From a virus, in IMG/VR virus record IMGVR_UViG_3300033153_005812, positions 1 through 64,000 of that record: a DNA stretch of 64,000 nt; one strand, 5' to 3'. Of this stretch, positions 3,945-44,636 are shown one piece after another (the stretch's first letter is position 1; each line of letters opens with the position of its first letter). A program made the translations under genes and the position numbers. The notes beneath the pieces were generated by a model. That model was given only the letters and a program-made list of their open reading frames with translations. It was not told where the DNA came from and did not search any database.

Positions 3945-6371
3945 GTGGGTTTTTTTGGTGGCGGTAGTAAAAAGGCGAAGCCGCAGATTGTGGGTTATAA
4001 GTATAGTCTGGGGATACACTTTATTCTCGGTTATGCGAATGCCGATGGAATAAAGCAGATCTGGGTTGGTGAGAAATGCGTCTGGCCTGCTCCTAACGAG
4101 TCAGATGTAGAAGCTGCGGATGCAAGTGCAAATGAGGAGACAATAAACATAGATGCAGAAAATATCTTCGGCGGGGACGCTACTGGTAAAGAAGGAGGTG
4201 TTTCTGGCTCAGTTGATATTCAGTATGGAGCTTGTGATCAACAACGGAATAGCTATCTTGTAGCAAGACTTGGTGAGCATATATCTGCATATAGAGGTCT
4301 TCTTAGTGTGATTTTGAAACAAGTTTATGTCGGTATGAGTGCTTATATTAAACCATGGAGTTTTTTGATAAAACGCACGGATAAACTTGTTAGTGGAGAT
4401 GATCAATGGTACACGATAGACGATAAGCATATAATTCATCCTGGAGAGCTTAATGGTGATGATCTTAACGCAGTCCATATAATACGGGAATGTTTGATAG
4501 ATAAGGAATGGGGTTTAGGATTCAAAGAGGGAGATATCAATGATGCTAATTTCAAAACTTGTGCTGATACTTTGAAGGAAGAGGGTTTTGGCCTCTCTAT
4601 TATTTGGGATAATAGCTCTCCTGTGGAAGAGTTTATTGATGAAATTTTAGCGATCATCGCTGGTTCTCTCTATCAAAATTTATCGACAGGAAAATGGGAG
4701 ATAGCATTAACACGTGAAGATTATGTAGTCGAGGATTTAGAGTGTTTTGATGAAGATCAAATTATTGAAGTTGAAAACTTTAGTAGATCAGGATACGGAG
4801 AGGTTACAGATCAAGTGACTATAAATTGGCATGATAAGATCTGGAATAAAAATAGGTCTATAACTATTTCTGATCCTGCTATGATAACAAAACAGGGAGG
4901 TAGGATAATAGAGAAGACTTATAATTATTTTGCTATTTGTAATAAAGATCTTGCGAATAGAGTAGCGAGTCGAGAGTTACAATTAGCTACATCTATGTTA
5001 GCTAACATACGAATAAAAGCTAATCGTCAGATGTCACACCTAAAACCAAACGATGTATTTAAGTTTTCGTGGGAGAATTTAGGTATTACGAACATGGTGG
5101 TAAGGGTGTTAGAAGTTAATTACGGCAACTTAACTAAAAATGAAATTGAGTTGAATTGTTGTGAAGATGTTTTTGGTACAGTTTATACCAGTTACGAAGC
5201 TCCCCCTGATACACAATGGGAAGATCCTGTTCATGATCCAGTAGATACAACTCACAGATTCTTAATGGAGATCCCTTATTGGTATCGGTGTAATTACGGA
5301 GTCGGACAAGACCTTGTAGATGTTTTAGATGACGATAATGCTTCGATGTTCGCGATGGCGGCGAAGCCCGACGCAACACCGGATTCTCACGAGTTTGATT
5401 TATTGGTGAAATTCGATGCAGTATCTGATTTTGACGATGAGGGTTACGGTGGCTACACTTCTACTGCGACTTTGAAAAATGATTTAGAACTTATAGGTTC
5501 TGAAGATGATTGGGTAGATTTAGAAAACGTCCAGGGTCTTGATCTAATTTCTGAGAATACCTGTGCAGTTATAGAAAATTCTGGAGACGATGAAGAAAGC
5601 GAGATTGTACGTTTGTTGGTAGTAGATGACACAGTAGGAGCAGAAAGAATTAAAATCGCAAGAGGGATTTTAGATACAAAACCTTCTGCTCATTCTATCG
5701 GTGATAGGATTTGGTTTATAAGTCTTGTAGATTACACTATTCCCATGGTTAGTAAAGACTTCACTAAATTTGAAAGTCCCCGAGTGAAATTTCTAACAAA
5801 AACCGGACGAGGGATATTAGCAGAAGAAGATGCAACTGAAGAAAACACTCTTCCCACTTATCTTGCTTTTAATAGTAGAATGATTCGCCCTTATTTACCG
5901 GGGAATCTTAAAATAAATACCGAAAGATTCCCGGAATATTTATATGGACAACCAACTTTAACTTGGAATCATCGAGATCGTACTAATTCAGATCAAATAA
6001 GGACTTTAGTGAAACATACTTATAGTGGGGATTACGGTCCAGAAACTGATGTAACTTACACCATACAATTCTTGACCGAAGCCGGAGTTGTGAAAAGGAC
6101 AATAACTGGTCTATCAGGAAAAACATATACATATCCTGCAGGTGAAGAAGTAACAGATTTCGGAAAGATACAGCATAAACTAAGAATTAAACTTTGGGCT
6201 GTCCGTGCTGGTTACGATTCTTGGCAGGTATATGATATCATACTCGAGAGGCCACTTCGCGGATCCTCTGCTGGACAATCTATTGTATCCGGAACACTCT
6301 CTGAATGGAATAACCTTGTAGGGAGTTTGACAGGACAGTCCGTAGTATCTGGGACACTCGTAGTGATATGA
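3945..6371 (+). CDS. Central tail/tip attachment protein
   Basis: VGYKYSLGIHF, DLNAVHIIRECL..KEWGLG, RGILDT motifs; ends in two copies of the ~20-aa repeat (SEWNNLVGSLTGQS). Confidence 0.8.
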   Translation: MGFFGGGSKKAKPQIVGYKYSLGIHFILGYANADGIKQIWVGEKCVWPAPNESDVEAADASANEETINIDAENIFGGDATGKEGGVSGSVDIQYGACDQQRNSYLVARLGEHISAYRGLLSVILKQVYVGMSAYIKPWSFLIKRTDKLVSGDDQWYTIDDKHIIHPGELNGDDLNAVHIIRECLIDKEWGLGFKEGDINDANFKTCADTLKEEGFGLSIIWDNSSPVEEFIDEILAIIAGSLYQNLSTGKWEIALTREDYVVEDLECFDEDQIIEVENFSRSGYGEVTDQVTINWHDKIWNKNRSITISDPAMITKQGGRIIEKTYNYFAICNKDLANRVASRELQLATSMLANIRIKANRQMSHLKPNDVFKFSWENLGITNMVVRVLEVNYGNLTKNEIELNCCEDVFGTVYTSYEAPPDTQWEDPVHDPVDTTHRFLMEIPYWYRCNYGVGQDLVDVLDDDNASMFAMAAKPDATPDSHEFDLLVKFDAVSDFDDEGYGGYTSTATLKNDLELIGSEDDWVDLENVQGLDLISENTCAVIENSGDDEESEIVRLLVVDDTVGAERIKIARGILDTKPSAHSIGDRIWFISLVDYTIPMVSKDFTKFESPRVKFLTKTGRGILAEEDATEENTLPTYLAFNSRMIRPYLPGNLKINTERFPEYLYGQPTLTWNHRDRTNSDQIRTLVKHTYSGDYGPETDVTYTIQFLTEAGVVKRTITGLSGKTYTYPAGEEVTDFGKIQHKLRIKLWAVRAGYDSWQVYDIILERPLRGSSAGQSIVSGTLSEWNNLVGSLTGQSVVSGTLVVI

Positions 6372-6375
6372 TGAA

Positions 6376-6404
6376 AAAAGCTGGAGCGAGGTACTCCAGC
6401 TTTT
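6376..6404. terminator. Bidirectional intrinsic terminator
   Basis: AAAAGCTGGAG-7nt-CTCCAGCTTTT perfect stem between convergent genes. Confidence 0.85.
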
Positions 6405-6424
6405 CGAGGAAAATTATCGAAGTG

Positions 6425-6540: not shown

Positions 6541-6582
6541 TAACTATATAAAGCATAGCATATATTAAACGAAATGCAAATT
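6541..6582 (-). promoter_or_regulatory. Sigma70-like promoter (TTGCAT-16-TATGCT, extended -10 TG)
   Basis: Reverse complement reads TTTGCATTTCGTTTAATATATGCTATGCTTTATATAGTTA, same architecture as the three + strand promoters. Confidence 0.6.
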
Positions 6583-6650: not shown

Positions 6651-6720
6651 ATAGTCTAATATCGGCTTCCCCAGCGATCGCTCAGAGCCTCTGCGGGAGT
6701 GAGCTGACACTATAGGGCCC
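6651..6720 (+). repeat. Dispersed structured repeat, copy A
   Basis: 6659-6703 is the exact reverse complement of 13899-13943; contains the AGCGATCGCT palindrome. Confidence 0.95.
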
Positions 6721-6820
6721 GGTATCTCAGGTCAGAGCAACCAGGAGTCTGTAGGGAATGGCTCTCATAAGTGCTTATAAACACTGGACTTATAACGATA
6801 GAAAAAATGATTATTTTTTC

Positions 6821-6861
6821 ATTTGCGTTATTCTAAAAATATGCTATACTTAACATAGTTA
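6821..6861 (+). promoter_or_regulatory. Sigma70-like promoter (TTGCGT-16-TATACT)
   Basis: ATTTGCGTTATTCTAAAAATATGCTATACTTAACATAGTTA, conserved with 20915 and 35023. Confidence 0.75.
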
Positions 6862-6890
6862 ATGATTTAAGAAGAGTAACAAAAACAGAA

Positions 6891-13882: not shown

Positions 13883-13954
13883 CAGCCTATAACACCGACT
13901 CACTCCCGCAGAGGCTCTGAGCGATCGCTGGGGAAGCCGATATCAGGCTGTAAA
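13883..13954 (-). repeat. Dispersed structured repeat, copy B
   Basis: 45-nt core identical to copy A (inverted); flanks CAGCCT/AGGCTG close a long stem. Confidence 0.95.
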
Positions 13955-13993
13955 TCACGTTTTAGACGTTATCAGCCTTTTCAGGAAAATTAA

Positions 13994-20839: not shown

Positions 20840-20914
20840 CCTGTAAGTTATCACAGTTACTGGAGTTATGTAAAGTAGGAATTTTTCACAATTTTGTAGG
20901 ATTTTTATTTTTTC

Positions 20915-20955
20915 ATTTGCTTTGTTCTAAAAATAGGTTATACTTAATATAGTTA
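20915..20955 (+). promoter_or_regulatory. Sigma70-like promoter (TTGCTT-16-TATACT)
   Basis: ATTTGCTTTGTTCTAAAAATAGGTTATACTTAATATAGTTA. Confidence 0.75.
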
Positions 20956-20999
20956 GTGAAAATCAATATCACAAGGTTAAATTTTTAGGAGACAAAGAA

Positions 21000-21944: not shown

Positions 21945-21978
21945 AACCAGAGGGTATGGAAACCCTCTGGTTATTTTT
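21945..21978 (+). terminator. Intrinsic terminator
   Basis: AACCAGAGGGT-6-ACCCTCTGGTT then ATTTTT. Confidence 0.85.
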
Positions 21979-22668: not shown

Positions 22669-22811
22669 GTGTTATTGTACTGATTCAATACCATCACTGT
22701 AAAAGAAAGAACTGACTTTTTCTCTCTTCTCCCGTATCGGTCGACAACCTGAGAGTAAGAAACTCTCAGGTTGTTTGGCCGGTATTACTGAAAAATTAAG
22801 AAAGGTGAAAA

Positions 22812-28322: not shown

Positions 28323-28391
28323 CCTATAGGGTCGGCCTACTCCCGCAGAGGCTCTGAGCGATCGCTGGGGAAGCCGATATTAGGCTGTAAA
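28323..28391 (-). repeat. Dispersed structured repeat, copy C
   Basis: 28339-28380 identical to the cores of copies A and B. Confidence 0.95.
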
Positions 28392-28393
28392 CT

Positions 28394-29317
28394 ATGCTTT
28401 ACATACTAATCTCAAAAATCGAGCTTAGAACCTTCAAAATTTGGGCAGGACACTTAACTGCTATCAGAGAGGTTTTAGACATAAATGGAAGTCGTTATCG
28501 ACAAATAGATATACTCCATGCAAAGCAAAAGACATTCAAAACAAACGATATTATCATCAATATTGGAAATCACCAATACGCTGGTTCTCAATTCTTAAAT
28601 GAATTAGCCGAGAGTGTTTCAAAAGCAGGTAGAACAGTTTTCTTTATGGATGATTACACGGCTCCTCCAGCAACACAATTACGTAAAGCTCTCACTAAAA
28701 GTTCTAATCTTTTAGTGACAAACATCAAAGATTTGAGCATCTTAACGCAACGAAAATCTCTTCAGCATTTTGAACCTGTCTATGTAAATCTAAACAAAGC
28801 TTCTTTCAAAAAACTCCCTCTCAAAGCTCCACAAGTTCCTGGCAGCTTTATTTATTGGGGTTCTTGTCGACGAGGAAGAGAACAAAGTTTCTATCGTTAT
28901 TTCAAACCAAATCTTTATCCGCTTTATATTTCTTCGAGTGATAGGGGGCACAATAAGTATTGTAATTTATACATAAATTATAGACCGTTAGAAAAAATGC
29001 TGCTACCTGAGGACTTACAAAAATATGGATTCACAGTAAATATTCGTGATAAGAAGCAACCAAAGATGGCTCCAGCAAATAGATTTTATGAAGCTATAGG
29101 TGCTGGACTTCCAATTTTCTTTGACCATGAATGTATTCCACGAATTGAAACTCCACTCTGCGTAAAAGACTATATTGTTTCTGAAGCAGAACAACTGCTT
29201 GAAAAAGATCTGCAAAGAACACAAGTAGAACAACGGAAGCTCTGGGGGCAACGTAATTATCGAATAGAGTTAGTGAATGAATTAACCGAAATATTTTTTA
29301 AGCATGGTATTTCATAA
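28394..29317 (+). CDS. GT-B glycosyltransferase resembling T4 DNA beta-glucosyltransferase
   Basis: VFFMDDY, FIYWGSCRRGRE, NRFYEAIGAGLPIFFD parallel the T4 BGT motifs (YLFTD, IYGGSFRSGQRE, LRVWE...MLID), recalled from memory. Confidence 0.65.
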   Translation: MLYILISKIELRTFKIWAGHLTAIREVLDINGSRYRQIDILHAKQKTFKTNDIIINIGNHQYAGSQFLNELAESVSKAGRTVFFMDDYTAPPATQLRKALTKSSNLLVTNIKDLSILTQRKSLQHFEPVYVNLNKASFKKLPLKAPQVPGSFIYWGSCRRGREQSFYRYFKPNLYPLYISSSDRGHNKYCNLYINYRPLEKMLLPEDLQKYGFTVNIRDKKQPKMAPANRFYEAIGAGLPIFFDHECIPRIETPLCVKDYIVSEAEQLLEKDLQRTQVEQRKLWGQRNYRIELVNELTEIFFKHGIS

Positions 29318-33838: not shown

Positions 33839-34744
33839 ATGAAGATCCTCGTAGATGCTTTTCTTATCATACATCGAGCTAAATACAAGTTAGATTTTCT
33901 CGAGAATACAGCCGGTCGAAAAACAGGAATGGAATACGGTTTTATCAAACTTTGTGAAGCTCTTGAACGAGAATTTGCAGGTGGAGATATAGTTTTGTGC
34001 TGGGAAGGTAAGAACAATTTTCGCAAGGAGCTTTATCCAGACTATAAGGGAAATCGTAAACCAAGTACGAATCCTCTTGCAAAACTCGACTGGGATCGCG
34101 TCGCCGATCTTAAAAACTTTTTAAGACAACCTTATATCAACGCAGAAGCTGAAGGCTACGAAGCAGACGATACGATAGCCAGTCTTGTAGATCACTACAA
34201 AGATCAAGAAGAGGTTATAATTTGGTCGAATGATAAAGATCTACTTCAACTTGTTAGAAAAGGTGTAACGGTTTGGAGAAGTTTTCAAGAGTTGCATAAG
34301 AAGTATAAGTGGACACCGAGGACAATTGAAGAAAAGTATGATGGATTATTTCCAAATGAGCTTCCAATTTATTTTGCTTTTGCTGGCGACAAGGTTGACA
34401 ATATTCCTGGTGTTCCAAAGATAAGAAAACCTGTTTTAATAAATGCAATTATCAACGCTCGTCGATTGATAAAGCCTGGATCGTTTATTTTCAAAGGGTG
34501 CTTGATTCAAGATATTTTGAATTACGAACTTTGGTCTGGGCCTGAATTATTAAGGTTAGAAAATTTTATTGAAGCTGGTCATTATCAAAGAAATATGGAG
34601 TTAGTAGTTCTAAGAAGACCAGACGTCATTATACAAGAACCAATAAAGAATGAAGAAATAATAAGAGAGTGGCTTGAAGAGTTAGAGCTTAGAAGTTTGA
34701 AAATGTCTGAAGAAACAGGAGTGTTAGATAATGCAGAATTCTAA
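33839..34744 (+). CDS. 5'-3' exonuclease/flap endonuclease
   Basis: YKGNR, EADD, DKDLLQL, GDKVDNIPGV. Confidence 0.92.
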   Translation: MKILVDAFLIIHRAKYKLDFLENTAGRKTGMEYGFIKLCEALEREFAGGDIVLCWEGKNNFRKELYPDYKGNRKPSTNPLAKLDWDRVADLKNFLRQPYINAEAEGYEADDTIASLVDHYKDQEEVIIWSNDKDLLQLVRKGVTVWRSFQELHKKYKWTPRTIEEKYDGLFPNELPIYFAFAGDKVDNIPGVPKIRKPVLINAIINARRLIKPGSFIFKGCLIQDILNYELWSGPELLRLENFIEAGHYQRNMELVVLRRPDVIIQEPIKNEEIIREWLEELELRSLKMSEETGVLDNAEF

Positions 34745-34745
34745 G

Positions 34746-34955
34746 ATGTCAAATCCAGAAGAAAATGATCTGTCAAAATTACTGAAGCTCAGAAGAAAAA
34801 CTAATAAGAATTTTCTTATGTTATTAAACGAATTACAGACCTCTATAGAATCTCTTCGAATCATGGTGAAGTATATGCAATTTGATTTAGAAGCTACGAG
34901 GCGAGAAAACATGGTTCTCAAAGAACAATTACGACAATATGAGGAAGGTGGTTAA
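34746..34955 (+). CDS. Small coiled-coil protein
   Basis: ORF closing the operon; start uncertain. Confidence 0.55.
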   Translation: MSNPEENDLSKLLKLRRKTNKNFLMLLNELQTSIESLRIMVKYMQFDLEATRRENMVLKEQLRQYEEGG

Positions 34956-35022
34956 AATAAAGTAGAATTCGTTATTTTAGAATAAATAAGCTGGTTATTA
35001 TAGGTTATAAAAAATGGATTTT

Positions 35023-35063
35023 ATTTGCTTTATTCTAAAAATACGTTATACTTTAGGTAGTTA
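35023..35063 (+). promoter_or_regulatory. Sigma70-like promoter (TTGCTT-16-TATACT) heading the cassette array
   Basis: ATTTGCTTTATTCTAAAAATACGTTATACTTTAGGTAGTTA. Confidence 0.75.
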
Positions 35064-35152
35064 AGTTAATTGACAATTGAATCGGGCTGAAACGGAGAAA
35101 ACAGGGGTGTCGGTAGGGCTAACCTTTCAAGGCTGACGGCTGAGGACGTAAT

Positions 35153-35207
35153 GGAAAACTTGTGGAGCCGCGACGTTGCGACGTTGCGGATCCGTGTGTT
35201 TTCTTAA
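35153..35207 (+). repeat. Cassette hairpin repeat, copy 0 (divergent left arm)
   Basis: Right arm GCGGATCCGTGTGTT(TT)CTTAA shared with copies 1-5; folds with its own left arm. Confidence 0.75.
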
Positions 35208-35225
35208 TACAATAAAGTAAGGAGA

Positions 35226-35468
35226 ATGAAAATGATTACTGCAACTCAAGTTCAAAAGGCAAGTCGTTCGGCGAGAAGAAATGCGTTCTACTTGGTGAAA
35301 GAAAACGATGTCACTATTGGCATGATTGAAAAACCATATCACAATAAGGACTATCGTGCTCAAGTTGATGGTAGGACTGTTGAGGTGTGTTCAACAAAGA
35401 AGCAAGCGATACGAACGATACTACGAAGAAAAGGTATATTCGGGGAGTGGATAATTCTCAATAACTAA
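35226..35468 (+). CDS. Cassette gene 1, hypothetical
   Basis: AAAGTAAGGAG RBS; stop TAA begins the repeat. Confidence 0.8.
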   Translation: MKMITATQVQKASRSARRNAFYLVKENDVTIGMIEKPYHNKDYRAQVDGRTVEVCSTKKQAIRTILRRKGIFGEWIILNN

Positions 35469-35520
35469 GAACGCAAGTCACCGTCCCGTTTCACAACGGG
35501 GCGGACACGTGTGTTCTTAA
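35466..35520 (+). repeat. Cassette hairpin repeat, copy 1
   Basis: TAAGAACGCAAGTCACCG...CGGACACGTGTGTTCTTAA. Confidence 0.95.
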
Positions 35521-35552
35521 AATTAAGTGGTGTAAAGTAAGAGGTGTGAAAA

Positions 35553-35777
35553 ATGGATGCTGTTAAAACCCAAATCTTGAAAAGTTTACAAGAACAAGGG
35601 TATAAAGTTTTATATGTCAAAGGTATTTATGTTTTCAAAGACGGTAAAAGATTATCAACAGCCAAAGCAATAAAGTTAGCAGGTATTAAAGTGAAACCAA
35701 AATCACGAAAGACTAAAACATCACAACCGTTGTATGGTGATTTCGCTTGGCTGGCTGGTATCAACCGTATCAACTAA
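35553..35777 (+). CDS. Cassette gene 2, basic hypothetical
   Basis: GAGGT RBS; stop TAA begins the repeat. Confidence 0.8.
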   Translation: MDAVKTQILKSLQEQGYKVLYVKGIYVFKDGKRLSTAKAIKLAGIKVKPKSRKTKTSQPLYGDFAWLAGINRIN

Positions 35778-35837
35778 GAACGCAAGTTACCGCCTCGTTT
35801 TGAGAAACCACGACGGGGCGGATCCGTGTGTTCTTAA
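35775..35837 (+). repeat. Cassette hairpin repeat, copy 2
   Basis: TAAGAACGCAAGTTACCG...CGGATCCGTGTGTTCTTAA. Confidence 0.95.
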
Positions 35838-35861
35838 AGTAAAGGCTGTAAAGTAAGGAGA

Positions 35862-36071
35862 ATGAAAATGACTACGATAGCACAATTAAAAACTGACATC
35901 AAAGACTTGAGTGGTCGCTTGTACTATTGCAGTAACACTGGTGAAGGCCGCAAGATGAGACGTGAGATTGAAAAGGCTATTCATCAAAAAGAACAGCAAC
36001 TTGAACAAATCTTTGTTGAAGAAGGATGTTTAGATTATCAACATCAAGCTGGTCGAGTAGTGAGGAGCTAA
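35862..36071 (+). CDS. Cassette gene 3, hypothetical
   Basis: AAAGTAAGGAG RBS; stop TAA begins the repeat. Confidence 0.8.
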   Translation: MKMTTIAQLKTDIKDLSGRLYYCSNTGEGRKMRREIEKAIHQKEQQLEQIFVEEGCLDYQHQAGRVVRS

Positions 36072-36123
36072 GAACGCAAGTTACCGCCCCGTCGTGAGAC
36101 GGGGCGGACACGTGAGTTCTTAA
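36069..36123 (+). repeat. Cassette hairpin repeat, copy 3
   Basis: CCGCCCCGTC-GTGA-GACGGGGCGG inner stem with GNRA loop. Confidence 0.95.
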
Positions 36124-36155
36124 ACAAAACAAAGTAAGTAAAGTAGAGGTGTAAG

Positions 36156-36347
36156 ATGGAAAAGCTAATTATAATTAAAGCGACAATGAACGATGGTCGA
36201 GAAAAAGAATATCGAGCTACAAATTTCACAGTGAAGCCTCTTCGTGATGGTACAGGGCTATGTATCAAAGTAGCTACTGACCACTCTATCATTTGTAGGA
36301 GTATCGCTGTTGAGCAAAAAGAAGTTGAGCCAGCTATTTGTTTGTAA
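36156..36347 (+). CDS. Cassette gene 4, hypothetical
   Basis: GAGGT RBS; stop TAA begins the repeat. Confidence 0.8.
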   Translation: MEKLIIIKATMNDGREKEYRATNFTVKPLRDGTGLCIKVATDHSIICRSIAVEQKEVEPAICL

Positions 36348-36466
36348 GAACGCAAGTCACCGCTCAGTATAGAGATAATGACACGTTGTACCGGGAAATC
36401 AGTTGTTTGTGCTACTAACGACCTGGGAATCAACACTCTTTGCTGAGCGGATCCGTGTGTTCTTAA
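36345..36466 (+). repeat. Cassette hairpin repeat, copy 4 (long insert)
   Basis: Same arms, inner stem CCGCTCAG/CTGAGCGG, 122 nt total. Confidence 0.93.
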
Positions 36467-36498
36467 AGTAAAGCGGTATAAAGTAATAGGAGTATGAA

Positions 36499-36903
36499 AT
36501 GATAAAGTGGACAGAAGAATCAGTTCTCGCTGTTATAGCGGAAGCAAGAAAACTTGGTGCTGAATTCGCTGCTAAGAAGTTAGCAGAATTGCAAAGAAAT
36601 GGACCTCAATATGAAGTGACTTCTGGTAGTACAACAGTTGGTACGCTGCTCGATGTCTGTGGATCTGCTCACTTGAAGATTTCAGCGAGAGGCAAGTTTT
36701 ATCAGATCGCTAAGAAATTATCTGCTGATAAAGGGATATATAGATTTCTTTGTGATCGTGCTTATCATGGTGGAGGAATGCTGTGCATTTTTGACAGCAC
36801 GATGCGACAAGAAATGTCAGTGAATGTTGCCGCTTGTAAAGGACAACAAAGTATCTTAGAAACTTATGGAATCGATGCGACAATAAAAAGTCGCATCGAC
36901 TAA
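36499..36903 (+). CDS. Cassette gene 5, hypothetical
   Basis: AGGAG RBS; stop TAA begins the repeat. Confidence 0.82.
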   Translation: MIKWTEESVLAVIAEARKLGAEFAAKKLAELQRNGPQYEVTSGSTTVGTLLDVCGSAHLKISARGKFYQIAKKLSADKGIYRFLCDRAYHGGGMLCIFDSTMRQEMSVNVAACKGQQSILETYGIDATIKSRID

Positions 36904-36962
36904 GAACGCAAGTCACCGTCCCGTTTTGAGAGCCACGACGGGGCGGATCCGTGTGTTCTTAA
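36901..36962 (+). repeat. Cassette hairpin repeat, copy 5
   Basis: TAAGAACGCAAGTCACCG...CGGATCCGTGTGTTCTTAA. Confidence 0.95.
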
Positions 36963-36976
36963 CAAAGTAACGGAGA

Positions 36977-37198
36977 ATGAGAATGGCGAAACGCAAATTA
37001 AAATTCAAACCTCGTCGGGCTCTGCTTAGATCAGATTTTAGAAAAACTCCAAAGCAAGAACCCCTCGCAGGAATGATTCTAATTGAGGGTGATGGTTGCA
37101 TCGCCGTAGATAAAATCAATAACTCGTTTCCTGATAAAGCAGAACGATTAGCGTACATCCGTGCTCTTATTGTAGGTATGGGCGGCTCACTTGAATAA
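36977..37198 (+). CDS. Cassette gene 6, hypothetical
   Basis: AAAGTAACGGAG RBS after the last repeat. Confidence 0.75.
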   Translation: MRMAKRKLKFKPRRALLRSDFRKTPKQEPLAGMILIEGDGCIAVDKINNSFPDKAERLAYIRALIVGMGGSLE

Positions 37199-37213
37199 AG
37201 TAAGGAGAACAAA

Positions 37214-37360
37214 ATGACAGAATATTATCTAAGACAAGCAGACCTTCGCAAAGATATTCCACTTCCAGATATGACAGATCTGATGGATTTTTGCGAGCAG
37301 GTTGATCGTAAAGAAAGAGCAAAAGAAAATCAGCGTAAAAAACAGGAGGAAGACAAATGA
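37214..37360 (+). CDS. Small hypothetical protein (48 aa)
   Basis: AAAGTAAGGAG RBS; ATGA overlap with the next gene. Confidence 0.6.
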   Translation: MTEYYLRQADLRKDIPLPDMTDLMDFCEQVDRKERAKENQRKKQEEDK

Positions 37361-39946: not shown

Positions 39947-40570
39947 ATGAAGCAAGAAAGAGATAAATCATTCGTCTGGATTTCGTGGCTTGCAAAGTTA
40001 CTCGCTGGAGAAATTCAATGCGAATTCGCGTGTTGGTTCAAATGCCATTATAAGTACGATAAAATCCCAAATGATTTTAACCTTGTTCGTTGGACGATGG
40101 ATCATAATCAGTTGGTTCATAAGACACGTGATGAATTAGAAAAGCAAGGTTATAAAGTCTTTATAGAAGACCAGAATGCTCTCAAGGTAGATATGCACGG
40201 AACTTGCGTTTCTGCAAAACCAGATATCGTAGCCATTAAAGACGACGAAAAGCTGGTTGTAGATTGTAAGACAGGCCGTTCGAAGAACAGCGATCACGTC
40301 CAAGTGATGCTCTATATGATGTTCCTCGAAGGTGAAGATTGGAAGGGGCGGATAGTCTACAAGACGACCAGCATTCCAATACCGAGTGTAGCTTTGAACA
40401 AGAGTTTTACAGATCTCGTAGAGAACACTGTTAAAAAACTTGGCTTTAATAACTCGACTCTTTCAAGGAGGGTTCCAAGCGAGAATGAATGTAGAAGGTG
40501 TGATATCACAAAGGAAGATTGTCCTGAGAGATTAGAGGATGATGGACAAGAACGCAAGCGATTCTTTTAA
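39947..40570 (+). CDS. Cas4-like PD-(D/E)XK nuclease
   Basis: KPDIV...VDCKTG, QVMLY, terminal CRRC....C Fe-S motif. Confidence 0.85.
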   Translation: MKQERDKSFVWISWLAKLLAGEIQCEFACWFKCHYKYDKIPNDFNLVRWTMDHNQLVHKTRDELEKQGYKVFIEDQNALKVDMHGTCVSAKPDIVAIKDDEKLVVDCKTGRSKNSDHVQVMLYMMFLEGEDWKGRIVYKTTSIPIPSVALNKSFTDLVENTVKKLGFNNSTLSRRVPSENECRRCDITKEDCPERLEDDGQERKRFF

Positions 40571-41697: not shown

Positions 41698-41790
41698 CGG
41701 CTTCCCCAGCGATCGCTCAGAGGTCGTACAGGAGTAAGTCGATATAATAAGGCCAACTCATCAGAGCACGAGGCTTGTGGGAGCGGGTTA
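41698..41790 (+). repeat. Dispersed structured repeat, copy D (degenerate)
   Basis: CGGCTTCCCCAGCGATCGCTCAGAG (41698-41722) identical to copy A, with patchy similarity beyond. Confidence 0.85.
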
Positions 41791-43165: not shown

Positions 43166-43470
43166 GGTCTGAAGCTGAATCTCAAATCAACCCAGATAGT
43201 TGCGAATCATTTATTGATAAGTGGTTAGAAGAGATAGCGAAAAAAGCATGGGACGCTGCGATAGACAATTGTAATTTGGTGTCCGATGCAATTCGCAAGT
43301 CAGCGTTCACCGGTGAAGAAGTTCTGGAGATCTTAGATAACTTACAAAGAACACTGGAGAGAACCAGATTTCCAAAGGCGTTCTTCCTAAAGGCTGTCTT
43401 CAAAATAATGAAAACCATGCCTACCGTCGAAAATATGATGAATGTAGCGAACAAAGATGAAGGAAAATAA
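43144..43470 (+). CDS. FEKW-module protein
   Basis: MEAFEKWW...WDAAI. Confidence 0.7.
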   Translation: MEAFEKWWSEAESQINPDSCESFIDKWLEEIAKKAWDAAIDNCNLVSDAIRKSAFTGEEVLEILDNLQRTLERTRFPKAFFLKAVFKIMKTMPTVENMMNVANKDEGK

Positions 43471-43843
43471 GATGAATCATAGTGATTTTCAAAAGAAAGT
43501 AAGTGAGTTATTGAAAAACAAAGGATGCTGGCTCTTCAACATTCATGGTCATAGAATGCAAAAGAGAGGTGTCCCAGATCTATTAGTTATTGGTTTAAGG
43601 TGGAAGGGTTTTTTAGAGTTCAAAATCGGGCGAGATAAATGTTCGAGAGTCCAGCAAAATGAAATGGAAAAAATCGAGAGGAGAGGAATGCCATGTTACG
43701 TTCTACGATACGATGAAGAAAACGATGCAATTCAAATAGAGAATAAGGGCGGTGATGAGCTGAATCTTGTAGTATGGGATGCGTTGTGGGACTGGCTAAA
43801 GAAGCACATCGGTGATCCTAATTATCATTGGGAATTACCGTGA
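43457..43843 (+). CDS. VRR-NUC-type nuclease (Holliday junction resolvase-like)
   Basis: GVPDLL...FLEFK...SRVQ. Confidence 0.85.
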   Translation: MKENKMNHSDFQKKVSELLKNKGCWLFNIHGHRMQKRGVPDLLVIGLRWKGFLEFKIGRDKCSRVQQNEMEKIERRGMPCYVLRYDEENDAIQIENKGGDELNLVVWDALWDWLKKHIGDPNYHWELP

Positions 43844-44109
43844 AAATTATCGGCTCACTTAATATTAGTGTTGAGATTCTTTATAATTGGATTAGCGTTC
43901 GTAGAGCAATTTCGTTATGTAATCCTCGAAGCCAAAAAACTCTTCGTCATCTTTGGATTTTTGTTTTTCCGTTGTTCGTTGTTCATTTTTGGGTGAATCA
44001 AAAATGTAATGTCTGCGACGGTCAAGGTCACAGAGAAAGATATGACTTAGGAGCTTCGTTTGAAGGTCCTTGTCCAAATTGTAATGGAACTGGAAGGCAA
44101 ACAAAATGA
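43828..44109 (+). CDS. Hypothetical protein with CxxCxGxG Zn-finger repeats
   Basis: CNVCDGQG...CPNCNGTG. Confidence 0.6.
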   Translation: MGITVKIIGSLNISVEILYNWISVRRAISLCNPRSQKTLRHLWIFVFPLFVVHFWVNQKCNVCDGQGHRERYDLGASFEGPCPNCNGTGRQTK

Positions 44110-44636
44110 AGAATTATGTACTGGGATTTTTGTTTAACAAATCTCAAAAGACAGTCCTACTTATTGAAAAGAAAAGACCAAAATGGCAAGCCGGTCGTTG
44201 GAACGGAATCGGCGGTAAGATTGAGGAGACAGATACTACTCCCTTAGAAGCAATGAAAAGAGAAGCCTGGGAAGAAATTGGTCACGATGTTGATTGGACA
44301 CACGTGCTTACAGTGGAACTGTTTCATCTGTCCGTCTTCGTCTATAAAGCTATCGATATTCCCGAACATGAAGCAATCTTCTTCGAGCAAAAAGAAGATG
44401 AATTACTAAAAGTTTGGCCGATAGATGCTCTTCCAGATGAAGTGATAAGCGATGTGAAATGGATGATACCTATCTGTCTTTCACCTCTCCAATTTCCGTT
44501 GATCATTCAGCAGGACACTCCGGGATCTGAGTGTCAAGGTTCAACAGAAAAATGGACGTGTCCGAAATGCAATTATAAAAATTCTCCTGAAGATAAGATC
44601 TGTAAGGGTCATACAGATTTTAGTACGATTAAGTAG
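44106..44636 (+). CDS. NUDIX hydrolase with C-terminal Zn finger
   Basis: GGKIE...AMKREAWEEIG; WTCPKCNYKN. Confidence 0.88.
   Translation: MKNYVLGFLFNKSQKTVLLIEKKRPKWQAGRWNGIGGKIEETDTTPLEAMKREAWEEIGHDVDWTHVLTVELFHLSVFVYKAIDIPEHEAIFFEQKEDELLKVWPIDALPDEVISDVKWMIPICLSPLQFPLIIQQDTPGSECQGSTEKWTCPKCNYKNSPEDKICKGHTDFSTIK

Follow-up and report, generated by a model that had tools for sequence, protein, structure and literature searches.

Hairpins at the stop codons of a phage small-gene array probably shape its mRNA and mark sites of gene exchange

The stretch of DNA analyzed here (the window) comprises bases 1-64000 of the 75,914-bp IMG/VR virus record IMGVR_UViG_3300033153_005812, and the subject of this report is an array of six small open reading frames (ORFs) within it, ORF1 to ORF6, in which each of the first five is closed by a conserved, bipartite hairpin placed at its stop codon. 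We propose that this hairpin probably shapes the mRNA and marks the sites at which genes are swapped, and that it is not an integron element; a reading of the letters and ORFs alone (the sequence-only reading) had called the layout of the array integron-like. On balance, and with modest confidence, we interpret the array as the beginning of an accessory-gene operon in a virulent-type siphovirus, where processing or stabilizing hairpins would double as linkers for homologous recombination.

The five hairpin copies lie on the + strand at 35466-35520 (55 nt), 35775-35837 (63 nt), 36069-36123 (55 nt), 36345-36466 (122 nt), and 36901-36962 (62 nt), exactly where the sequence-only reading had placed them and with the same lengths. 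Each arm pattern gave five zero-mismatch matches, where about 0.03-0.1 were expected by chance, and none of the shuffled sequences reached five. The copies of the array were found nowhere else in the whole 75,914-bp genome. In all five, the first TAA of the hairpin is the stop codon of the upstream ORF (ORF1, ORF2, ORF3, ORF4, and ORF5, respectively), and on the 3' side of every copy there are AAAGTA motifs followed by a GGAG ribosome-binding site (RBS); both features had been pointed out before, and both were confirmed. The folding energies ranged from -31 to -46 kcal/mol, with z-scores of -5 to -8.6, placing the five hairpins among the most stable 70-nt folds of the window; the first copy had -31.3 kcal/mol (z -6.8), the third -33.9 kcal/mol (z -8.6), and the fourth -45.9 kcal/mol. 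With a covariance model, scores of 73.7, 74.1, 58.9, and 77.4 bits were obtained for the first, second, fourth, and fifth copies. A GNRA loop, also reported earlier, was seen in a single copy, that at 36069, where it reads GUGA, and the other copies lack it.

The fold has two parts. A 10-bp lower stem (UAAGAACGCA / UGNGUUCUUA) leads into a 5x5 internal loop (AGUYA / AYMCG), within which two internal pairs are possible, and above it stand a covarying upper stem of 9-10 bp and a terminal loop, both of them variable in sequence, giving an overall helix of about 22-25 bp interrupted by the internal loop. The fourth copy, at 36345, has the standard arms, and its upper stem is lengthened by a structured insert of about 60 nt that had no Rfam match. 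In the window as a whole, Rfam gave no match at gathering thresholds, and only noise (E ≥0.87) was found at 34950-37250. The covariance model was built with 15 copies and used to search seven sequences, i.e., the window and six relatives. This search, of a kind that the sequence-only reading had proposed, returned 22 full sense-strand copies in seven phage contigs, 17 of them outside the window, and the gene content and order between them differed from contig to contig.

In this set, pairing was kept in 93-94% of the cells, and 6-7 pairs were altered on both sides; most of these belong to the upper stem, and one belongs to the lower stem. None of 500 shuffles matched the observed values, and when the 3' partner was shifted by 1-3 columns, pairing fell to 28-50%. 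The non-Watson-Crick cells included 23 G·U versus 3 A·C, and in most copies the sense RNA was energetically favored over the antisense RNA, usually by 5-9 kcal/mol. The stop codon makes up the first three bases of the hairpin in 16 of the 22 copies and lies 1-5 nt upstream in the remaining six; where TGA takes the place of TAA as the first codon, the pair becomes G·U and pairing is kept. The excess of G·U pairs, the greater stability of the sense strand, and this retention of TGA as a G·U pair favor an element that acts as sense-strand RNA, rather than as a DNA cruciform or a bottom-strand fold. The RNA function on the sense strand put forward earlier is likewise supported by the covariation.

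The hairpin, the spacer, and the RBS together form a linker of about 90-100 nt that is near-identical at every junction. The spacers are either AAAGUA-rich or UUCACAAGUUAAAUUUGGGAG, and one type is used throughout a genome, with the type varying from genome to genome, therefore suggesting that the linkers are homogenized by recombination. The genes that these linkers separate could be compared with those of six related metagenomic phage contigs (L006, L042, which is the same contig as L007, L120, L121, L122, and L123), found by pattern scans and by a scan with the FEN protein, the FEN-type 5'-3' exonuclease encoded ahead of the array. The FEN of L042/L007 is 72% identical to that of the window, and synteny is shared. 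A scan with the 15-mer left arm gave about 100 single matches, which were taken as chance without inspection, and two contigs with two matches each, which are real relatives; another metagenome match, L124, was due to chance.

Gene content and order differ between these loci. Writing H for the array hairpin, L for the leader hairpin described below, F2, F6, and F7 for the families of ORF3, ORF4, and ORF5, and F1 for a membrane peptide of 41-45 amino acids (aa) that is missing from the window, the window reads L-ORF1-H-ORF2-H-F2-H-F6-H-F7-H-ORF6 and onward. Both L006 and L120 read L-F1-H-F2-H and onward, L042 reads L-F1-H followed by a 71-aa ORF and H, L121 reads F1-H followed by a 94-aa ORF and H, and L122 reads F1-H-F7-H and onward. 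The L123 locus starts with F1-H and goes on with a run of small ORFs, one of them F6-like, with a hairpin after each of the first six; its final hairpin comes after an ORF pair. The positions and neighbors of F2, F6, and F7 thus vary among phages, and the slot after the leader peptide is filled by at least five different genes in the six relatives. Two of the relatives, L120 and L121, are 93.3% identical over the 1.5 kb that leads to the start codon following their first hairpin; they then hold unrelated ORFs (72 vs 94 aa), and where the next hairpin begins, identity is back at 94.5%, from its first base onward. The difference between these two contigs is a replacement bounded exactly by the start codon and the stop codon/hairpin. 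The comparison shows that related phages have exchanged whole ORFs at the linker, in accordance with the earlier proposal that the repeat is a crossover point for gain, loss, or reordering of genes. Moreover, the variable part is not carried along with the ORF that it closes: homologous ORFs (F1, F2, F6, and F7) precede upper-stem variants that differ between phages.

The array has a single promoter. This sigma70-like element occupies 35013-35067 on the + strand, with a -35 box TTGCTT at 35025-35030, a 16-nt spacer, and a -10 box TATACT at 35047-35052, and the promoter pattern gave an exact match at 35025-35054; no promoter-like sites were found in the hairpin-spacer units. The earlier statement that there is one promoter holds for the array and has to be widened for the genome, in which this promoter is one of three near-identical copies of a repeat family, D10 (6811-6865, 20905-20959, and 35013-35067). 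The three share the form TTGCNT, 16-nt spacer, and TATACT, with conserved flanks, and they stand in front of the replication module, a second block, and the hairpin array, respectively. A related promoter, directed leftward, was observed at 6550-6579. An equivalent promoter precedes the leader in L006, L120, and L121.

A long leader is present at the third promoter copy (35013) only. It is a conserved, structured 5' leader of 146 nt on the + strand (35059-35204), which could be aligned with four relatives, and it contains, from about 35081, the motif AUAGGGCUGAAA[A/C/G]GGAGAA, near-invariant in these four relatives and present in the window as a variant with AUC.. and ..AAAC... The leader terminates in a bipartite hairpin at 35153-35205, with a folding energy of -26 kcal/mol. 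This had been described as a lead copy keeping the right arm only; the hairpin is in fact complete, has a left arm of its own, GAAAACUUGUGGAGCCG, and is conserved in the four relatives. The RNAalifold consensus of the leader showed six pairs with compensatory changes, mainly in the leader hairpin. In the 5' part (35059-35152), a small and weakly supported stem was seen beside the AUAGGGCUGAAA motif, and this part could serve as a standby site for ribosomes or as a cis-regulatory RNA not yet catalogued. No Rfam family matched the leader, and a scan of IMG/VR with the leader motif gave three extra matches (L117-L119), all of them chance matches in coding DNA.

Hairpins of the same plan and of other sequence were found in several phages. 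Family B, of the form UUGAAAGCUG-AAAUA-CUGGCCA...UGGCCAG-ACUUA-CAGUUUUCAA, is present in L006, L120, and L122, and family C is carried by a phage whose FEN is just 39% identical. Both consist of a lower stem, a 5x5 loop, and an upper stem, with the stop codon in or beside the lower stem, and both are followed by the GGAGAAUGAAAAUG start region, as in the main family. The B and C loci were located at 10520-10590 in L006, at 4881-4949 in the oriented sequence of L120 (minus strand), and at 1096-1158 and 1550-1624 in L009; they have the common cores AAUACUGRCC...GGYCAGACUU, and their lower stems covary. The real matches of a pattern scan for families B and C were limited to contigs already known. 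In the still more distant locus L126, which encodes an ORF5 homologue and was reached by alignment of ORF5 homologues, a hairpin stands after each small early gene together with a repeated RBS unit, and these hairpins are unlike one another in sequence and do not belong to the main family. The hairpin design thus predates its particular sequence. Two very short ORFs were also seen near hairpins: in L123, two hairpins about 90 nt apart (528-728) surround a 19-aa micro-ORF (MRFYIYLTNKFFNWWISSS), and in L006 a homologous 17-aa micro-ORF lies 5' of a family B hairpin.

These observations can be joined in the following model. The sigma70-like promoter would give rise to a single long transcript of the array, in which a bipartite RNA hairpin closes the structured leader and every one of the first five cistrons. 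On the sense mRNA, the hairpins would serve as intercistronic processing signals, as signals that protect 3' ends, or as both, and each small gene would thereby gain its own stabilized message. We infer cutting or 3'-end protection because the hairpin placement, the irregular helix of two turns, and the internal loop closely parallel the T7 early region, and by this parallel the likeliest enzyme for the putative, T7-like RNA cleavage would be a host RNase III-type double-strand endonuclease; no RNase III is encoded in the phage genome. The exchange of genes would proceed by ordinary homologous recombination over the 90-100-nt linkers, as with promoter-early stem-loops (PeSLs), and would not require a site-specific recombinase.

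Several points weigh against this model. The lower stem and internal loop are perfectly conserved in sequence, which is more than RNase III needs and could reflect a sequence-specific protein or simple recombinational homogenization. The stop codon is strictly in the stem, a feature foreign to T7 sites. Processing alone explains neither this placement nor the invariance of the lower stem and loop, and a dedicated binding protein or a switch coupled to translation might account for them. As for the exchange, only one replacement was seen between near-identical contigs; the other differences in content are between more diverged phages, and general mosaicism could contribute to them. Furthermore, since the linkers within a genome are alike, homologous and site-specific exchange are indistinguishable at the junctions.

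It is possible, if rather doubtful, that the hairpins are passive barriers to 3' exonucleases, i.e., mRNA stabilizers of the REP type, and that RNase E or J cuts in the A/U-rich AAAGUA spacers instead of RNase III cutting in the helix. Such barriers would fit the sense-strand evidence equally well; the folds are very stable, and the hairpin is separated from the RBS by A-rich, single-stranded stretches in which AAAGUA recurs. However, a barrier needs neither an invariant internal loop or lower stem nor a 5'-leader hairpin ahead of the first gene. These invariant parts, preserved across phages whose FEN proteins are just 72% identical, would be expected of a site for a dedicated RNA-binding protein, or of a translation-sensing switch, in which a terminating ribosome would melt the lower stem and so couple translation to mRNA cleavage or to initiation at the next gene. 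We regard this explanation as unlikely. The stop codon is found at the hairpin or 1-5 nt 5' of it in the 22 copies, with the same arrangement in families B and C, and when the left arm was held single-stranded in a fold test, the freed right arm paired near the next Shine-Dalgarno (SD) sequence in some copies; nevertheless, these alternative pairings were weak and differed among copies, no candidate RNA-binding protein was identified in the genome, and gene conversion between linkers can also yield the invariance in sequence. The hairpins might instead be attenuators or terminators, as the PeSL stem-loop is, with the leader RNA driving readthrough by put-like processive antitermination. The structured leader directly 3' of the promoter, at the 35013 promoter only, and the G+C-rich upper stems would be in keeping with this highly improbable reading, but a U tract is wanting after the helix, and all the downstream genes depend on a single promoter. 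In a scan with a terminator consensus, a short sub-stem of 5 bp was flagged in two copies only, with no U tract past the full helix; canonical terminators with a G+C stem and a U tract are employed elsewhere in the genome, e.g., at 6376-6405 and 21945-21975, and the hairpins were accordingly rejected as canonical intrinsic terminators.

In an integron-like system, which we hold to be very unlikely here, the hairpins would be attC-like folded sites at which a host-encoded or unrecognized site-specific recombinase captures and excises ORF cassettes. There is one hairpin per ORF, with AAC...GTT outer ends, a variable center, and an embedded stop codon, and gene content varies between the conserved sites. 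Nonetheless, no match to tyrosine or serine recombinases (PF00589 and PF00239) was found in the complete 75.9-kb genome, with control genomes being positive, and the outer 7-mers TAAGAAC/GTTCTTA misfit RYYYAAC/GTTRRRY, only AAC and GTT being in agreement. In addition, extrahelical bases are lacking in the symmetric internal loop, and the antisense (bottom) strand, which has A·C mismatches, gives the poorer fold. The site does not accompany its ORF either, as homologous ORFs have different variants. Assignment to attC sites was rejected for the unmatched core consensus, the symmetric loop, the lack of a recombinase, and the variable part not being tied to the ORF, and an integron-type mechanism is likewise unsupported; a match to the Rfam AAC_AAD_leader/attI model (E=6.3) was attributed to chance. 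An equally slight probability is given to the linker being a dedicated cassette-exchange module that would fold in single-stranded DNA or RNA. In place of an integron integrase, another phage or host enzyme specific for such structures would recognize it; candidates are the neighboring nucleases of the FEN type or the PD-(D/E)XK type. If true, this would provide the clade with an integron-like capture and reordering of accessory genes without a tyrosine recombinase. Finally, it is hardly credible that the hairpins are selfish, miniature palindromes (MITE/REP-like) that have invaded TAA sites between genes. The terminal inverted repeats, with TAA/TTAA at their flanks, and the variable lengths, the 122-nt copy among them, are what such an element would show, but all 22 copies have the same orientation, within one operon and in a precise position relative to stop and start codons, and the covarying upper stems denote selection for structure. 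Copies are likewise wanting elsewhere in the genome and in prokaryote genomes: among 185,579 of these, the hairpin had one match only, a chance one within a coding sequence of a Roseburia metagenome-assembled genome.

The six ORFs of the array, all on the + strand, are unrelated to one another, as had been noted before, and none had a significant match in Pfam, PHROGs, or PADLOC. ORF1 (80 aa; 35226-35468) likely starts at its second ATG, 35232, as judged by the spacing from GGAG, and it had no homologue in the six related loci. ORF2 (74 aa; 35553-35777) had no significant match in Pfam or PHROGs. ORF3 (F2; 69 aa; 35862-36071) is predicted to be coiled-coil-like; its homologues take the second position in L120 (73% identity) and L006 (51%), and its similarity to a Mu Gam/Sipho_Gp157-like Pfam domain was weak and below the cut-off (E 1e-4). 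ORF4 (F6; 63 aa; 36156-36347) showed weak similarity, with an E of only 0.009, to a 57-aa ORF in L123. ORF5 (F7; 134 aa; 36499-36903) belongs to a widespread conserved phage protein family with 55 homologues, whose invariant residues include DxCG and GGG motifs, RQE, and AAC; the homologue in L122 is 56% identical and also flanked by hairpins, with other neighbors. The AF2 model of ORF5 had a pLDDT of 93, yet Foldseek returned no significant fold match in the PDB, and neither a PDB sequence search nor the ESM Atlas gave an informative match. ORF6 (73 aa; 36977-37198; likely start 36983) is the last gene preceded by a hairpin. It has no hairpin on its 3' side, and the operon goes on with tightly packed small genes. 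An anti-defence or host-takeover role of these ORFs is plausible, judged by position and size alone.

The phage genome of 75,914 bp has direct terminal repeats and a completeness rating of 100%, and its + strand carries all the long ORFs. Pfam recognized tail genes, a portal protein (DUF4055), a coat protein of the P22 type, a MuF/ADP-ribosyltransferase head protein, and a replication/nucleotide module with an SNF2 helicase, a primase, a family A DNA polymerase, a thymidylate-synthase-like protein, a sugar epimerase, an ATP-cone protein, a DNA methylase, and, at 33839-34744, the FEN-type 5'-3' exonuclease. The 76-kb Vibrio siphoviruses of the SSP002 group have coat proteins with 41% identity to the one encoded here; no nucleotide match to the array was found in GenBank phages by blastn in distant mode, and no tRNA or tmRNA genes were found. 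The array is the beginning of a small-gene region of about 10 kb, immediately after the FEN gene and one 74-aa ORF. Downstream of the array, this region encodes a Cas4-like PD-(D/E)XK nuclease (39947-40570), a weak VRR-NUC-like nuclease (43457-43843), and a NUDIX hydrolase with a C-terminal Zn ribbon (44106-44636). The top simple hairpin of the window (-36.5 kcal/mol) is at 22726-22795, just 5' of the thymidylate-synthase-like gene; its stem, of about 23 bp, is near-perfect and has a single bulge. A dispersed intergenic element of about 79 nt, MITE-like by appearance, was observed in four copies, at 13886-13964 and 28323-28401 on the + strand and at 6663-6719 and 41698-41754 on the - strand. 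The palindrome GCGATCGC, the cyanobacterial HIP1 sequence, has four sites in the window, all inside this element and one per copy. It may hint, at best, at a cyanobacterial host, the clue being weak because the dispersed element accounts for every site.

If the hairpins are processing or stabilizing signals, the design of the T7 early region extends to a distant, uncultured clade of siphoviruses, and the stop codon in the helix would hint that the fate of the mRNA is tied to translation termination. The linker is a clear natural example of a standard connector, a stop-to-start unit of about 100 nt; because it is equal at every junction, any ORF can be swapped without disturbing the expression signals, which helps to account for the turnover of small accessory genes in phages. 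New early or anti-defence proteins could be sought in the arrays, which could also be put to use as insulating parts of synthetic operons. What is new here is the combination of T7-type intercistronic hairpins with PeSL-type recombination linkers, both kinds of element being already known.

Compared with known systems, the array resembles integron attC sites in having a folded site 3' of each promoterless ORF, a variable center, and a variable array content, and it departs from them in core consensus, extrahelical bases, bottom-strand folding, IntI, and linkage of site and ORF, all of which were tested and none of which was as in attC. Unlike REP or MITE elements, it is not dispersed over a genome or a host and has no second orientation. 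The T7 early region contains the RNase III signals R0.3, R0.5, R1, R1.1, and R1.3, and the early mRNA of the Bacillus phages SP82 and SPO1 has sequence-conserved Bs-RNase III sites. As in these phages, one hairpin stands downstream of the promoter or promoters and ahead of the first gene, and others separate successive small early genes; the helix is irregular, of about two turns and with an internal loop, and would function in the sense RNA. In the array, the cistrons of one transcript are indeed separated by irregular hairpins that span at least about 20 bp and contain an internal loop, and, as in SP82, the sites of one phage resemble each other in sequence. In contrast to T7, SP82, and SPO1, the stop codon of the array is built into the lower stem and the arms are identical across copies and phages, and there is no sequence relationship and no Rfam match; the likeness to T7/SPO1-type RNase III sites, drawn earlier, is one of architecture and of nothing beyond it.

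The SAS/ESAS repeats of the Cluster K mycobacteriophages, the function of which is not known, are dispersed through the genome, and the ESAS has 17-bp arms and a spacer of 4-13 bp (Pope et al. 2011, PMC3203893). The array shares with them a conserved asymmetric motif at the translation start of a subset of genes, in one orientation, with an imperfect inverted repeat of variable spacer ahead of the motif. The sequences are different, and anchoring to the stop codon is not reported for SAS/ESAS (PMC3203893). The PeSLs of T4-type phages each hold a strong sigma70 promoter and have a stem-loop that acts as a terminator, and they border exchanges for which homologous recombination is proposed (Arbiol et al. 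2010, PMC2839356; Comeau et al. 2014, PMC4122927). Unlike PeSLs, the array has one promoter overall, and its hairpin is long, bipartite, and without a U tract. Like them, it is a repeated composite intergenic motif, running from the upstream stop codon through the downstream SD and start codon, that lies between small non-essential ORFs and forms the borders of insertions, deletions, and replacements among related phages, as seen here in the L120/L121 replacement and in the content and order that vary across the seven loci.

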